Virus genome (UHGV): UHGV-1430452
Origin: a virus
Direction: 5' to 3' (one strand)
Length of the DNA: 64,000 nt
Both the position numbers and the translations under genes were made by a program. A model generated the notes under the pieces. It did no database searches and had not been told where the DNA came from. It saw nothing but the letters and a program-made list of their open reading frames with translations. Positions 4,438 through 41,818 of this stretch are shown here, piece after piece; positions within the stretch are counted from its first letter, which is position 1, and every line of letters starts with the position of its first letter.

Positions 4438-4511
4438 TGGACCCTCTGGGATTCGAACCCAGGACCGTCCGGTTATGAGCCGGATGCTCTAACCAACTGA
4501 ACTAAAGGTCC
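4438..4511 (-). tRNA. tRNA with CAU anticodon (Met or lysidine-modified Ile2)
   Basis: Reverse complement GGACCTTTAGTTCAGTTGGTTAGAGCATCCGGCTCATAACCGGACGGTCCTGGGTTCGAATCCCAGAGGGTCCA folds as a canonical cloverleaf. 7-bp acceptor, GTTCGAATC T-loop, anticodon loop CTCATAA. Confidence 0.88.
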
Positions 4512-36622: not shown

Positions 36623-37120
36623 TTACTCTTCCGGATGTTCCTCCGCTGCAAATCTGGATGAGAATCTGTCAATATCCTGAGTTACACACATTGACTGCAA
36701 ATATGCTGCACGGAATGGTTTACCGTTAATCTCAGAATCATACGGTCTGATATCAAGATCGACACTTGCAATATCAATTTCGTCGAGCATGGATACTGTT
36801 TCTTCATCAAGTTTGACTCTATTTCTACCAGACTGAAGATATACAATAGGGCCTCTGTCGTTAAATTTGACTTTAACTGGAAGATAGATAAATGGTTCAT
36901 CTCCATCTTCTCTTGGCGGTTTGATCTTTACATTCCATCCTGCTCCAAACTTATTTACATCATTCTGCAAAGCTTCTGCCATTTCTTCGTTAGGGATAAT
37001 CAAAGCGAAGTTACGGTCTCCTTCTTTGTTGAATTTACCGCCTTCTCCTCTGAAGTTTCTGAAAATGATTCTTGCGTCATCGATCTGTAATACTCCTCTT
37101 GGTGCGAATGTTAATTCCAT
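36623..37120 (-). CDS. putative ssDNA-binding protein (gp2.5-like)
   Basis: Beta-rich body with an acidic C-terminal tail (AAEEHPEE). It lies directly downstream of the replicase gene. Call based on context and composition only. Confidence 0.4.
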   Translation of the reverse strand: MELTFAPRGVLQIDDARIIFRNFRGEGGKFNKEGDRNFALIIPNEEMAEALQNDVNKFGAGWNVKIKPPREDGDEPFIYLPVKVKFNDRGPIVYLQSGRNRVKLDEETVSMLDEIDIASVDLDIRPYDSEINGKPFRAAYLQSMCVTQDIDRFSSRFAAEEHPEE

Positions 37121-37310: not shown

Positions 37311-37601
37311 CTATCGTAAAGATTTTGGGACAAGGCTTTTGATAATCTTTTTCTGATGCTCGTCCAGATCGTGATATAGAGTGAAACCCGTTGCCCCATT
37401 ATACTCATCGCCAAACTGTTTGTAGTACATAGATTGTTTCCATAACTCCGGATACTCTTTTTTGTACTTTGCGAGTTCTTTTGCTTTCTTGTCATACTGT
37501 TTATCCGAAATTATATTATTATCTAACTCGTAATAAATATATGAATGAAGTATGATATATCTTTGCAAGTAATCTATGTATTCGAGGGTTGTTAGTTCCA
37601 T
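37311..37601 (-). CDS. stand-alone protein resembling NAD-ligase (LigA) N-terminal domain Ia
   Basis: LHSYIYYELDNNIISDKQYDKKAKELAKYKKEYPELWKQS follows the LigA pattern H.Y.YYV.D.P.ISD.EYD.L..EL..LE...PEL. Confidence 0.4.
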   Translation of the reverse strand: MELTTLEYIDYLQRYIILHSYIYYELDNNIISDKQYDKKAKELAKYKKEYPELWKQSMYYKQFGDEYNGATGFTLYHDLDEHQKKIIKSLVPKSLR

Positions 37602-40600
37602 GGCAGCTCTACATCTTCATCATCGAATGGAATTTCCTCAGGAGATCCTTCCGGTATGTTCATGAAGTCTGGTAAATGAGAATCTCTAAAAGGAGGTTCA
37701 TGCCGATCTGAAGCATCCCAAGGCGGAGTACCAACATATGGATCGTCTGATATGAACCACTCAGCGTCTCCGTATTGACCAATAGTTTCAAGAGCATCAT
37801 CCACAAGCTTTCGATAATATGAACGATCAATATTTTCTTCATTTCCCGGAGACATCATTAACTCGGATTCAAGCCAACGGAAACCAGTTGTTCCTGTAGC
37901 TGCATAATATTTACCGTTCTGTTCTCGCATCAATAGTCCTCCACCCTTTCCAGGCTTAACCGGACAAAATTGCCCAACTTTACCTACGAAATGATAGTCA
38001 TGACCTTCAGCTATTAAATCGTTTAATCTTCGACACTCACTTTCGAAAGTTGTGTCCGATAACTTACCTTTCCTGTACTTATCTTCAAGTTTGGATAGTT
38101 CTTTTTCATACTCGGATACATCTGGAAGTTTTTCGTTCATATCCAAATATAAAGCAGATTTTACTGAGAATGCTTCGCACATATCTTTCAACTCAATTGG
38201 TTCTTTACTGAACAGTGTTTTAAATACATACGGAACTGCAAACTGTTTTCCAGTAGCTGTCCATTCTCCGGCATTCTTTCCATCTTTAAACCTAGCCACG
38301 TACACAGCATCATTTACTAAACAGAATTTTTCAAAGTTAGCCTCTGTTTCAAATGTATATCCGTATTCTTTACCGAATTTGGTTACGAAATCAATAATAT
38401 CAGGAGTAGCATCGGGTATCTTTATGGAATCTGTCTTGATATGACAAACAGTAAATCCTCGTTTCTGAACTTCTCTTTTCAATAATGTCATGAAGAGAGC
38501 TCCTCTTTTGGCAACAATGTTATCCTTATTTCTAGGATCTCTAAATTCATTTACGAAGCCAGCTGATGTCAAACCATAAATGGAATTGATAACAATCTTA
38601 AGTGCCTGCGCTAAATCAGCAGCCTGTTCTTCATTTAAGTATGGTTTCAACGCTCCACCTAATAATTGTCCAGCTGTTTCAAAGTCTTTATGCTTAATTG
38701 CAACACGAGCTTTTACAATATCCTCAAACCGTTTTGTATATTCTGGTCCAAATAGACATTCGAATATAATACTGTGAGGATGCTGAGAAGCAATGTCTCC
38801 ATCCCATACATTACCGTAATGCCCAGGTTCAGAGTAAACCCGACCGCCTTCTCCAATGGCTTCGCCTAAATATGTTGATTTACCAAACTCAAAAGTATAG
38901 CCTTTAAAGAATGGAAGAATGCTATAACCTTCTGGAAGCTTTTCGCCAGGAACGTAAGATCGATATAATGGAAGACCCTCAGAATCAAATACTCTGAAAT
39001 CATAATCATCTCCGAATTTAATTCTATATTCATCATAACGATCTGAGCTAACCGGTTCCGCCAAGTATCTATAGTTGAATACATTCTGCGGTTTTTTATT
39101 ATTTCCAAATATAATTCTTTTAGAAAGAGTATTTGTCGTATCATTAACTGTAACGTTTGTAATATCATGTAAGAGTTTTACAAGATCAACCTGAATCTGT
39201 CTAGCAACAAAGTCTGCTTTTCTTGCATTGAATACAGCTTCCGTCGCAATGACATCATTATCGCAATACTCAGCAACCTTTGCCCATAATTCTTCTGGAA
39301 CTGGTTGATCCCAAGGAAGACCAAGCTCTTGATGATGAATACCCAGTTCAATCTCCCATTTCTTTAAACTCTGTTTCACAGTTGACATATCATATACATC
39401 AATGTAACCAAGATTATATGCCTCACCAAACATGCCATTATCACGGCTTCCCTTTGGAGCATTAATAATTCTTTGAGATAACTTATATATTTCCTCATTT
39501 GTGTATCCCATAAGTCTAGCATAAATGATATGTCTGTCGTATTTACGTCCATTAAAATCAACAAGTTTAAACTTTAGAAGATTTTCTATTTCTGCTGGTG
39601 TAGGATTAATTAATCTAACTACTGTTTTTCCTTCTCCAGCAAACTTATAGTTTACCAAAAATAAATTTGGGAATACCTCACAATCATAGAATACAAGATC
39701 GTCAGTATCACCCTCATTACTTGTCTCTGAAGCCTCTTCACTCTTAAACGCCATCTGATTAACTAACTTCAAACACTCATCAGCCTGGTTACTACTACTC
39801 GCCGCCAAAGCAAATACAGCATTTTTCATATCAGACACATCATATCCAATACCACTCTCATAAGCCTCATCCAAAAGTTTCTTAATCATTTGAATACTTG
39901 GAGCTGTGTTACCCATAATTTCTTTATTCAGATGTTTCTTAAGAACGGATCTCAAATATTTCTCATTCTTAATACCATCAAAGTTAATCACATTTTTCAC
40001 CTCTTTCAACGGAAGACCTGAGCTAATTGTACGAATAACAAGATTGACACACTTAGTAAGTTTTCTTCTAAGAGATGTTTTACCGGTAAATACCTTAATC
40101 TCGATATCCTCATCAAATATACGACTTAATTCACTCACATCACCGTTATAAATATAATGAAGATGAATACCTCCACCACTTTTGCTTAACTCAGCATATG
40201 TTGGAGGCCATTTACTAGCTGCTTCAAGATTCTTCTCGAAACATTTATTACCATTCTCGTCCTTAATATCAAAGTCAATAACTACATGATTTTCAGGGAC
40301 CTTGACGTAATGAAGTTTTGATGTGTCAAGTTCTGATAGGGTAGTTGAAACTTCATCCCATGGCTTCGTCGGAGTTTCTTTTGAAGTAGCATATTGAGCT
40401 GGACAATCAGAACATTCTTTATCAAAAATAGACTCCTGTTCTTCAAATATAAGCCAGCTCTCAGTTTTCTCATCTCCAATAGGTTTCTCTGCTTTAACCT
40501 TTTTCTTCCCACCAATAGAGTCTTCGAAAATATCAGTCTTAAAACCGTCGTAATAACTCAGCAGCTTACTTCCATCTTCTTTCTCCACCTTCTCATCAAA

Positions 40601-41818
40601 TTCCAAAAAATAGTTTCTCAACTCGTCTTTGAATTTTGTCTTAGAAAATGGATACGGCACTTTTGCTTCCTCACAGTAGTTTTTATACATCTCCCATGCT
40701 GCTTTTAGCGTAGTACCATCTTCTTTCTTGAAGACACTGAATGAATCACATACGAAGTTATAAAAGTCATTAGAAGCCATAAGCATGTCCTTCGGAGCGT
40801 AAGTATCGTAATACTCTGGATCTTCTTTAAAGACTTGTAAACAATGATATGCGATTGCTCCCAACTCAAAATCAACCTGTTTGGTCAATCTACGATATTC
40901 TCGAATCGGTATCTTGTTTCCAGTAGGACGAACGTCAATCAAACGCCTTAGTAAACCAGACTTAGCATCAGTGATCTTAACAGGTGTGTTTGTACCCATA
41001 AATAAAAAACATTTGAATCTTGTTTCATATTGTCCTTTAAATTTTTCATTCATGGTCATTATCTCGTGTGAAATCACCGAGTTTAAGCGCGTATTATCTT
41101 CGATTTTTGATAAATCACCATCATGTTGTATCGCTACAAGAGGGTTATTCTTAAACGGTTCCAGAGCGAAAACATTATTCGGATTACCCAAAGCTTTTGC
41201 GTCAAAAGAACAACAATATCCTTCAAATAATTTCTCGATAATATTTATGATAGTTGATTTACCAGTACCACCAGCTCCGTAAAGCACCAGGAACTTTTGA
41301 AGTATTTTTGATTCCCCAGATACAACGGAGCCGATAGCCCATTCTATTTTACGTCGTTCTTCTTCGGAATATAGAGTACCGATGAGTTTATCCCATGCAG
41401 AAATATCGCCAGGTTCGAGAGGATACGGGAGTCTCTTGCTTGCGAAATTCTCTCTGCTTAATTCTGTGTTTGAAAATATAAGTTCATCATCGAGTACAGC
41501 AAAGTTATCACGCATCTGTTTCTGACAATATTTATGGAACTTATCGATTGAGCCACTGTCAGCATCCCACATATACTTAATTACAGGAGTACCTTCAAGA
41601 CGTCCTTCATTTTCAGCGACATATCTATCAAGTTCTCTATCTACAAGACGGGTTACATCGTCTTCATCTGTACTCCACATCTTTCGATCTTCATCCCAGA
41701 TAGCGTAAAAGTCCCTACCTCGAATCATGAGATCTTTAGATTTCAACATTTTGAACTTAGGAGAAACATCAACACTGCTTTTATTCGTCTTCGTTGATAC
41801 TGTCATGAAGTCCAACAT
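37592..41818 (-). CDS. fused SF3 helicase / AEP primase-polymerase / family-B DNA polymerase
   Basis: Walker A YGAGGTGKST. AEP motifs VVIDFDIKD and SGGGIHLHY. PolB ExoI FYDCEVF, ExoII YCDNDV, motif A DGDIASQHPHS, motif B KIVINSIYG, motif C HIKTDSI. Confidence 0.8.
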   Translation of the reverse strand: MLDFMTVSTKTNKSSVDVSPKFKMLKSKDLMIRGRDFYAIWDEDRKMWSTDEDDVTRLVDRELDRYVAENEGRLEGTPVIKYMWDADSGSIDKFHKYCQKQMRDNFAVLDDELIFSNTELSRENFASKRLPYPLEPGDISAWDKLIGTLYSEEERRKIEWAIGSVVSGESKILQKFLVLYGAGGTGKSTIINIIEKLFEGYCCSFDAKALGNPNNVFALEPFKNNPLVAIQHDGDLSKIEDNTRLNSVISHEIMTMNEKFKGQYETRFKCFLFMGTNTPVKITDAKSGLLRRLIDVRPTGNKIPIREYRRLTKQVDFELGAIAYHCLQVFKEDPEYYDTYAPKDMLMASNDFYNFVCDSFSVFKKEDGTTLKAAWEMYKNYCEEAKVPYPFSKTKFKDELRNYFLEFDEKVEKEDGSKLLSYYDGFKTDIFEDSIGGKKKVKAEKPIGDEKTESWLIFEEQESIFDKECSDCPAQYATSKETPTKPWDEVSTTLSELDTSKLHYVKVPENHVVIDFDIKDENGNKCFEKNLEAASKWPPTYAELSKSGGGIHLHYIYNGDVSELSRIFDEDIEIKVFTGKTSLRRKLTKCVNLVIRTISSGLPLKEVKNVINFDGIKNEKYLRSVLKKHLNKEIMGNTAPSIQMIKKLLDEAYESGIGYDVSDMKNAVFALAASSSNQADECLKLVNQMAFKSEEASETSNEGDTDDLVFYDCEVFPNLFLVNYKFAGEGKTVVRLINPTPAEIENLLKFKLVDFNGRKYDRHIIYARLMGYTNEEIYKLSQRIINAPKGSRDNGMFGEAYNLGYIDVYDMSTVKQSLKKWEIELGIHHQELGLPWDQPVPEELWAKVAEYCDNDVIATEAVFNARKADFVARQIQVDLVKLLHDITNVTVNDTTNTLSKRIIFGNNKKPQNVFNYRYLAEPVSSDRYDEYRIKFGDDYDFRVFDSEGLPLYRSYVPGEKLPEGYSILPFFKGYTFEFGKSTYLGEAIGEGGRVYSEPGHYGNVWDGDIASQHPHSIIFECLFGPEYTKRFEDIVKARVAIKHKDFETAGQLLGGALKPYLNEEQAADLAQALKIVINSIYGLTSAGFVNEFRDPRNKDNIVAKRGALFMTLLKREVQKRGFTVCHIKTDSIKIPDATPDIIDFVTKFGKEYGYTFETEANFEKFCLVNDAVYVARFKDGKNAGEWTATGKQFAVPYVFKTLFSKEPIELKDMCEAFSVKSALYLDMNEKLPDVSEYEKELSKLEDKYRKGKLSDTTFESECRRLNDLIAEGHDYHFVGKVGQFCPVKPGKGGGLLMREQNGKYYAATGTTGFRWLESELMMSPGNEENIDRSYYRKLVDDALETIGQYGDAEWFISDDPYVGTPPWDASDRHEPPFRDSHLPDFMNIPEGSPEEIPFDDEDVELPWN

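Follow-up and report, generated by a model that had tools for sequence, protein, structure and literature searches.

A putative ortholog of the GP55 four-in-one replicase encoded in a gut-clade phage genome

Introduction

[quoted passage not shown] Biochemical work later showed GP55 to be a 'four-in-one replicase', active as a helicase, an RNA primase, a polymerase and an exonuclease (Zhang et al., NAR 2025, PMC12205980). The protein performs de novo synthesis on ssM13 DNA and has a requirement for its alpha-helical accessory domain (aHD); de novo synthesis depends on NTPs and on D509 of the AEP domain, and F667 is essential for priming (PMC12205980). A polymerase-dead GP55 still makes RNA primers, which are extended by the PolB domain. 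Its helicase is fuelled by UTP or dTTP, is responsible for dimerisation and confers strand displacement, and mutation of K189 abolishes the helicase activity (PMC12205980).

Pas55 of Actinoplanes phage phiAsp2, a fusion of SF3 helicase, DnaG primase and PolA (PMC4889955), is by its description an analogous three-function polypeptide that differs in having an unrelated TOPRIM DnaG primase and a family A polymerase. The D5, P4-alpha and SaPI primase-helicases (PDB 7OLA) and the NrS-1 primase-polymerase-helicase carry the AEP domain N-terminally and lack a fused polymerase. Neither phage 1706 nor the fusion is mentioned in a paper on PolB diversity (PMC7544198) or in one on polymerase swapping (PMC11348598). 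Here we analyse a gene found in a 64,000-nucleotide stretch of virus genome UHGV-1430452 (the window).

Results and discussion

A single chain collinear with GP55

The features of the locus are collected in Table 1. By BLASTP the protein aligns collinearly with GP55 over residues 7-1374 (39% identity, E = 0), and phrog_4210 matches residues 2-1361 over profile positions 1-1290 of 1304 (E = 0). Like GP55 (phage 1706, Fremauxvirus), it contains an SF3 helicase, a PriS-like AEP domain and an aHD followed by PolB with its exonuclease, and the two proteins share both the motif C HxKTDS and a histidine in motif A. Residues K189, D509, D712/E714, D949 and Y655 of GP55 correspond to K187, D517, D712/E714, D1008 and Y659 here, and all of the latter are invariant or nearly so in a 14-member alignment. 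By analogy, the gene very probably encodes the phage's own replicative enzyme, an ortholog of GP55. The N-terminal D5/P4-type SF3 NTPase would unwind duplex DNA, AEP together with aHD would prime the unwound single strand with short stretches of RNA, and PolB would extend these with dNTPs and proofread with its DEDD 3'-5' exonuclease.

Table 1. Coordinates of the replicase gene, its predicted modules and the neighbouring SSB gene
Feature	Residues	Position	Strand	Evidence
Complete replicase gene (1408 codons + stop codon 37592-37594)		37592..41818	(-)	ORF list
N-terminal region and D5/P4-type SF3 helicase	1-430	40529..41818	(-)	DUF5906, TIGR01613, PDB 7OLA
Lys/Glu-rich variable linker, helicase-primase	431-457	40448..40528	(-)	family alignment, AEP model
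AEP (PriS-like) primase catalytic domain	~458-600	40019..40447	(-)	
Alpha-helical accessory domain (aHD) of primase	~615-690	39749..39976	(-)	
PolB 3'-5' proofreading exonuclease subdomain	~705-900	39119..39706	(-)	
Clade-specific ~48-residue insertion, exonuclease-palm	923-970	38909..39052	(-)	family alignment, BLASTP gap vs GP55
PolB palm, fingers, thumb	~971-1370	37709..38908	(-)	
Disordered acidic C-terminal tail, ...PDFMNIPEGSPEEIPFDDEDVELPWN	1371-1408	37595..37708	(-)	pLDDT, alignment
Phage ssDNA-binding protein (SSB) gene		36623..37120	(-)	Pfam PF24083, E = 5e-42

Several differences from GP55 accompany this likeness. The window protein is longer by 91 residues; GP55 lacks the insertion between exonuclease and palm, a second, helical insertion of ~40 residues (~1233-1275) and the acidic tail. 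The likely host also differs from that of phage 1706, the closest records coming from human faecal samples. Where GP55 has F667, the BLASTP alignment shows L671 in the window protein, a conservative substitution; this difference, together with the two insertions and the C-terminal tail of the gut-phage clade, counts against a function of the GP55 type. The identity is only 39%, and the protein may differ from GP55 in the NTPs that it prefers, in its oligomeric state and in its primer specificity.

The helicase and primase modules

A sequence-only reading of the window had proposed that helicase, primase and polymerase are joined in this order, and each motif that it quoted was found in its place. 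For the SF3/D5-type helicase, the proposal was borne out by matches to Pfam DUF5906 (residues 179-292, E = 7e-13), to TIGR01613, the NCBIfam P4-family primase C-terminal domain (161-396, E = 5e-17), and, at the level of the family profile, to the PDB 7OLA primase-helicase (E = 4.6e-7). Pox_D5 matched weakly (E = 0.09), with a Pox_D5-like C-terminal segment at 353-413. All of the elements that define membership of the D5/P4 type of SF3 helicases are present: Walker A (GAGGTGKST with K187, within YGAGGTGKST at residues 180-189, nt 41252-41281), the Walker B region (D233/D235), the sensor-1 asparagine (N277, within FLFMGTN at 271-277) and the arginine finger (R291/R292, within GLLRRL at 288-293). 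G184, G186, K187, T189, D233/D235, N277 and R291/R292 are invariant in the 14-member alignment.

What departs from D5/P4 proteins is the arrangement. Their AEP domain usually precedes the helicase, whereas here AEP (458-600) follows it (1-430), an inverted order common to GP55 and the window protein; in addition PolB comes next, and an aHD replaces the helix-bundle or PriL-type accessory domain. The intervening linker is poorly conserved, varies in length in the family alignment and, where the AEP model begins, has a pLDDT <50.

The AEP domain gave zero sequence-level matches among AEP Pfam or PDB entries; its proposed identity as a prim-pol was upheld by the predicted structure, which has the AEP catalytic fold, by its motifs and by homology to GP55. 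Motif I (DxD) is D515-F-D517, within VVIDFDIKD (residues 512-520, nt 40259-40285), and motif II (sxH) is S-G-x-G-x-H552-L-H554, within SGGGIHLHY (547-555, nt 40154-40180); D515/D517 and H552/H554 are invariant in the 14-member alignment. Motif III (acidic) can only be inferred, the invariant E573 being the candidate. The proposed order of modules stands; the sequence-only reading had overlooked the aHD between AEP and PolB.

The polymerase module and the mode of priming

The family-B assignment was likewise sustained. The family profile matches E. coli Pol II (E = 4e-6) and archaeal PolBs, while a single-sequence phmmer search of the PDB returned only a marginal Pol II match (E = 0.19). A predicted model of residues 687-1408 (pLDDT 84) has the DEDD exonuclease and the palm, fingers and thumb of the PolB fold, and its top 50 Foldseek matches are family-B polymerases only (probability 1.0). 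The exonuclease motifs are ExoI (DxE; D712/E714 within FYDCEVF, residues 710-716, nt 39671-39691), ExoII (Nx3YD; FNGRKYD, with N756, Y760 and D761 invariant) and ExoIII (Yx3D; YCDNDV, residues 851-856, with Y851 and D855 invariant). YCDNDV had previously been mislabelled as ExoII. In the palm, motif A (DxxSLYPS) reads D1008-I-A-S-Q-H1013-P-H-S, within DGDIASQHPHS (1006-1016, nt 38771-38803), motif B (KxxxNSxYG) is K1074-x3-N-S-x-Y-G, in KIVINSIYG (1074-1082, nt 38573-38599), and motif C is H-I-K1128-T-D1130-S, in HIKTDSI (1126-1132, nt 38423-38443). D712/E714, D1008, S1011, P1014, K1074, N1078, Y1081 and G1082 are invariant in the 14-member alignment.

Pfam, run on the whole protein, gave only DUF5906 apart from the weak Pox_D5 match and detected neither AEP nor PolB models, which counts against these two assignments. 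The expectation that domain searches would recover all three modules therefore fails for Pfam alone, which sees only the helicase, and holds for PHROGs, profile-versus-PDB comparison and structure prediction. The predicted AEP and PolB modules are supported by the structural models, the profile matches and homology to GP55. A practical consequence for annotation is that Pfam shows only DUF5906 in these proteins of 1300-1450 residues.

The polymerase might instead be protein-primed (phi29-type) or self-priming, with the AEP domain serving as a repair or translesion prim-pol. We consider this very improbable. De novo synthesis by GP55 depends on NTPs and on AEP D509, and its PolB domain extends RNA primers that the polymerase-dead protein still makes. 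Moreover, the Foldseek top 50 are archaeal, eukaryotic or bacterial PolBs, with phi29 at 0/50, and a terminal-protein gene was not identified within the scanned part of the neighbourhood.

KTDS is a signature of the family

The sequence-only reading had drawn attention to motif C, in which Lys takes the place of the leading Asp of the canonical DTDS. The substitution is real: a HMMER alignment pairs K1128 with that Asp in the YGDTDS of E. coli Pol II, and the second, catalytic Asp is kept as D1130. In addition, the usual Tyr of motif A is replaced by His (H1013). These departures, together with the lack of a match to Pfam PolB models, are what would favour a degenerate, inactive PolB, the protein then being a helicase-primase whose polymerase-like tail is only structural. 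Such a reading is extremely unlikely. GP55, with the motif C HVKTDS and the same motif A His, is an efficient proofreading DNA polymerase, and loses polymerase activity in the D949A mutant. Both universally required polymerase carboxylates, D1008 (motif A) and D1130 (motif C), are present, and these residues, motif B and ExoI-III are invariant in the family, which indicates selection on catalysis.

The motif is also not special to this gene. HxKTDS occurs in 120/120 close homologs and in 140/150 of the best representatives at 50% identity, and Asp occupies the first position in 0 of those 120 and 150 sequences. Because active GP55 and 140/150 representatives share it, KTDS is a clade signature and does not point to inactivity. 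Both this motif and the motif A His mark the family as a whole and occur in an active enzyme, and by analogy with GP55 the Lys should not prevent catalysis.

The nearest stand-alone PolB relative in phage records, that of the Queuovirinae coliphages (Seuratvirus Skure, 9g/JenK1-like), matches the PolB module with 24% pairwise identity (E = 1e-17). Its motif C (NTDG) is likewise without the first Asp, but it is a separate 661-aa protein without helicase or AEP and has the canonical Tyr in motif A (DVTSYYPS).

We tentatively raise, as a doubtful proposal, that the invariant motif C Lys and the invariant motif A His may create a mechanistically distinct PolB active site in this clade. The Lys amine could be a putative stand-in for the first Asp and its metal or water, helping to bind the triphosphate or to stabilise the leaving group. 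The His, at the steric-gate Tyr position, could loosen or shift the discrimination between sugars and so let the polymerase accept RNA primers in cis. The text of the GP55 paper (PMC12205980) discusses neither substitution, and nothing relevant was found in the literature on KTDS in polymerases.

Integrity and spread of the fused chain

The ORF listing of the window gives an ATG start and zero internal stops over 1408 codons, in agreement with the proposal of one polypeptide. With stops at 5.9% of codons over all six frames of the window, the probability of 1408 open codons by chance is ~4e-38. M1 is preferred over M5 as the start since D3 and F4 are invariant across the family alignment; the JGI call P0001, a 100%-identical protein of 1404 aa, begins at M5.

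That a frameshift, missed stop or misassembly joined separate helicase-primase and polymerase genes was considered since the gene is a metagenome-type sequence, but no supporting evidence was found, and it is effectively refuted by the same chain in 119 further protein clusters from metagenome assemblies (66-95% identity, each 1331-1441 aa), in 252 phage records matching over >=80% of the query, cultured phages among them, and, uninterrupted, in 125/150 best representatives (clusters at 50% identity), with linkers aligned without frame changes. A splitting frameshift or stop, named beforehand as what would undo the fusion, is thus contradicted by other assemblies and cultured phages. The single chain is, judged from these homologs, not a sequencing artefact.

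The metagenome homologs comprise at least 8000 clusters among the matches listed. Gut phages and phages of Faecalibacterium, Gordonia, Arthrobacter, Curtobacterium, Microbacterium and Streptomyces carry full-length matches with 44-64% identity, annotated as DNA primase/polymerase or helicase/polymerase. The 'DNA primase/polymerase' proteins of the actinobacteriophages (the last five of these host genera) and the 'helicase/polymerase' of Faecalibacterium phage FP_oengus are full length, 44-53% identical and carry identical motifs, and differ in that the gut-clade insertions and the long C-terminal tail are absent or partial. No biochemical characterisation of these homologs was found in the literature searched. 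A two-piece match in Streptomyces phage Bing does not represent a divided replicase: its gene 64 spans the full length, and the additional match is to a small 'AAA-ATPase' gene upstream. The window protein is a new, ordinary member of a replicase family that is both known and very common. The implied novelty of the fusion does not hold, as it was already reported (PMC4889955, 2016; PMC12205980, 2025), and its discovery value is little, since the fusion was catalogued in 2016, its biochemistry followed in 2025 and SEA-PHAGES routinely annotate DNA primase/polymerase.

Features of the gut-phage clade and the neighbourhood

When the 20 kb surrounding the gene were searched by megablast, the one match was an unannotated record of a faecal phage (14% covered, 72.6% identity). 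Because this sole match is so limited, a close DNA-level relative is absent from the phage collection. The gut-phage branch keeps every catalytic residue of the family, and in the alignment the clade differs from the rest only by the two insertions and the acidic disordered tail. The 923-970 insertion is absent from GP55 and the actinophage homologs, and the helical one lies inside the palm/fingers/thumb region. This map of insertions and tail may help in planning mutagenesis or in engineering such enzymes.

The gene is part of the replication module in a siphophage-like genome that belongs to the 1706 / FP_oengus / actinophage supercluster. Genes for a YonO-like RNA polymerase (phrog_4291, E = 0), for a tail fibre protein, for the SSB and for a serine integrase make up its phage context. 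ORF56 of phage 1706 has the size and position of the Nlig-Ia gene in the window but is not similar to it, and in 1706, FP_oengus, Petito and Mudcat Pfam found no Nlig-Ia adjoining the replicase.

GP55 has no counterpart of the tail (pLDDT <50), which occurs in the gut-phage clade; in the aligned tails of close relatives, [IL]P[FW] recurs with acidic residues after it. Separately from the active-site proposal, and held with the same reserve, the acidic tail with its IPF-like motif may be a putative tether of the replicase to the neighbouring SSB. The SSB itself is likely the partner of the replicase at the fork; a PF24083 SSB is also encoded downstream of the replicase in FP_oengus.

A single-chain replicase orthologous to GP55

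The replicase is encoded by a single unbroken ORF of 1408 aa with an ATG start (ORF listing of the window). Stops make up 5.9% of codons across the six frames of this AT-rich window, and the chance probability of an open frame this long is ~4e-38. A ribosome-binding site (GGAGG) lies 11 nt 5′ of the first ATG, and the family alignment (14 members, distant homologs included) shows no variation at D3 or F4. The public JGI call for the identical protein (1404 aa) starts four codons later, at M5. Based on the position of the GGAGG and the invariance of D3 and F4, translation begins at M1 rather than at M5. The start of the replicase shares 38 nt with the end of an upstream ORF.

A sequence-only reading had assigned helicase, primase and polymerase modules to this chain. 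The sole domain recognised by Pfam was DUF5906 (D5-like NTPase, residues 179-292), with Pox_D5 and papillomavirus E1 helicase matching below threshold, and NCBIfam assigned residues 161-396 to the P4-family primase C-terminal (helicase) domain (E = 5e-17). The 14-member family profile matched PDB 7OLA (molecule name "DNA primase"; E = 4.6e-7). The helicase residues of Walker A, Walker B, sensor-1 and the Arg finger are all invariant in the family alignment, as are the AEP motifs D515-x-D517 and H552-x-H554. The four-helix segment after AEP (~615-690) gave matches to generic helical repeats only. Every motif quoted in the sequence-only reading was located within a few bases of its coordinates, and the motif labels stand with one exception: YCDNDV (residues 851-856) follows the ExoIII pattern Y-x3-D and had been mislabelled ExoII, which is FNGRKYD (N756, Y760, D761).

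The functional precedent is GP55, the replicase of Lactococcus phage 1706. Purified GP55 displays DNA polymerase, 3′-5′ exonuclease, UTP/dTTP-dependent helicase and RNA primase activities, abolished by D949A, D712A/E714A, K189A and D509A, respectively (PMC12205980). Priming also needs a new alpha-helical domain (aHD), including its essential residues Y655 and F667; the protein dimerises via its helicase domain, replicates ssM13 DNA completely de novo and has >1000 homologs, chiefly in human-associated phages (PMC12205980). GP55 aligns with residues 7 to 1374 of the window protein (39% identity, E = 0). Residues K189, D509, D712/E714, D949 and Y655 correspond to the identical K187, D517, D712/E714, D1008 and Y659, which are invariant or nearly so in the family alignment, while F667 (here L671) is the only probed residue that differs. 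The window protein has intact catalytic motifs and the predicted folds and is a GP55 ortholog, and the three-module assignment is upheld. Architecture and function are already published (PMC4889955, PMC12205980), and the window protein is a new member of this known family. By analogy with GP55, the SF3 domain would unwind DNA and power strand displacement, AEP and aHD would synthesise RNA primers, and PolB would extend these and proofread, possibly as a dimer whose two subunits divide priming and extension between them.

The one-chain form is the rule among homologs

PHROG 4210 ('DNA polymerase') matches the window protein end to end (E = 0). By tblastn, 323 of 50,697 phage records matched, 252 of them covering at least 80% of the query. 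Identity was 64-65% for two unannotated human faecal phage records, 53% for Faecalibacterium phage FP_oengus ('helicase/polymerase'), 43-49% for many Gordonia, Arthrobacter, Curtobacterium, Microbacterium and Streptomyces phages ('DNA primase/polymerase') and 35-39% for Lactococcus phages 1706, P078 and P118. In Streptomyces phage Bing a second piece of the match (1483-1938), apart from the full-length replicase gene 64, covers gene 60, a small upstream gene (151 aa, annotated 'AAA-ATPase') that could represent an incomplete copy of a replicase segment.

A word-indexed search returned at least 8000 clusters at 90% identity (all E <= 1e-10), with lengths of 1331-1441 aa throughout the top 120 matches. 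Exhaustive phmmer with the PolB module gave 390 clusters at 50% identity (E <= 1e-30); 125 of the best 150 reach at least 1200 aa, and the shorter entries among these look mostly like truncated gene calls. In the tabulated full-length representatives the PolB match falls within the C-terminal half. Since long one-chain homologs with a C-terminal PolB prevail, the single chain is the rule, and an assembly artefact is ruled out. The proposal of one 1408-aa polypeptide was therefore borne out, both by the continuous ORF and by the same form across the family.

Substitutions in motifs C and A

Motif C had been read as KTDS, with Lys replacing the first Asp. The alignment agrees: K1128 stands opposite the first Asp of the E. 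coli Pol II motif YGDTDS, and the second Asp (D1130) is kept. The PolB catalytic pair comprises the second motif C Asp and the motif A Asp, here D1130 and D1008.

Sequence comparison indicates that the Lys is a conserved family signature rather than specific to this gene. GP55 carries HVKTDS, and HxKTDS is present in all 120 of the closest metagenomic homologs (the best 120 of at least 8000 clusters). Among the best 150 representatives at 50% identity in a library of 1.84 billion proteins, HxKTDS occurs in 140, HxSTDS in four, RTDS in one and DTDS in none. Pattern search did not recognise motif C in five of the 150 (P0124, P0199, P0204, P0258 and P0261, all full-length), whose polymerase modules could have diverged, been interrupted or lost activity. 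Seuratvirus PolB, the nearest stand-alone relative identified, has NTDG. Because GP55 is an efficient polymerase with the same Lys, this residue is compatible with catalysis.

At the motif A position usually holding the steric-gate Tyr (DxxSLYPS), the window protein has H1013. The form DxxSxHPxS is family-wide: GP55 has the His, as do 229 of 270 sequences under a loose pattern; the stand-alone Seuratvirus PolB retains Tyr. In its text the GP55 paper takes up neither the Lys nor the His substitution, with zero occurrences each of 'motif C' and 'DTD' (PMC12205980).

Additions in the gut-phage clade

The gut-phage clade, comprising the window protein and its metagenomic homologs, has three features beyond what GP55 and the actinophage proteins contain: two insertions and a C-terminal tail (see table). 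The tail carries a recurring [IL]P[FW] that is conserved in the clade, and is absent from GP55. Its IPF-plus-acidic pattern resembles the C-terminal tip of bacterial SSB; we speculate that the tail contacts the adjacent SSB.

Features of the replicase and its surroundings
Feature	Coordinates	Strand	Details
YonO/crAss-like 'RdRP' RNA polymerase, 1056 aa	305-3475	-	C-terminal HTH; phrog_4291, E = 0
tRNA-Met(CAT)	4438-4511	-	normal
Stand-alone Nlig-Ia protein, 96 aa	37311-37601	-	PF22745, E = 9e-22; phrog_6466 'DNA ligase'
Replicase	37592-41818	-	1408 aa
Acidic C-terminal tail, disordered	37595-37708	-	residues 1371-1408; ends …EEIPFDDEDVELPWN
~40-residue insertion			residues ~1233-1275; C-terminal (thumb) part; helical in model
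H1013	38780-38782	-	motif A
48-residue insertion			residues 923-970; between exonuclease and palm
Overlap with upstream ORF	41781-41818		38 nt
Upstream ORF, 82 aa	41781-42029		phrog_16983
DUF6353/phrog_2152 paralogs (three)	44029-44967, 47042-47869, 49330-50106	-	within 6 kb upstream of replicase
tRNA gene	47958-48031	-	Rfam RF00005, 62 bits
Serine integrase, 528 aa	within 56053-58312	+	phrog_95, E = 1e-91

Genomic context

The replicase stands within a run of minus-strand genes. Directly downstream, overlapping its stop, is the Nlig-Ia gene, whose product is confined to the NAD+-binding Ia domain that NAD-dependent DNA ligase carries; in 1706, FP_oengus, Petito and Mudcat no such gene was found adjoining the replicase. 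In the window it is followed by a phage ssDNA-binding protein (SSB) gene (36623-37120; PF24083, E = 5e-42). Upstream, besides the DUF6353 paralogs, are small conserved proteins without assigned function. The YonO-like RNA polymerase has been proposed in a preprint as the signature gene of the actinophage / 1706 / FP_oengus supercluster (10.1101/842583), which fits the phylogenetic neighbourhood of the replicase.

Elsewhere the window encodes an SF2 helicase and a tail fibre protein. Its sole plus-strand block (56053-58312), where GC and AT skew switch sign, contains the serine integrase, pointing to a temperate phage or a prophage. ARAGORN assigns no identity to the second tRNA gene ('tRNA-???', two-base anticodon); its anticodon stem is ACAGA/TCTGT, and its loop, CUUAUA, has 6 nt rather than the usual 7.
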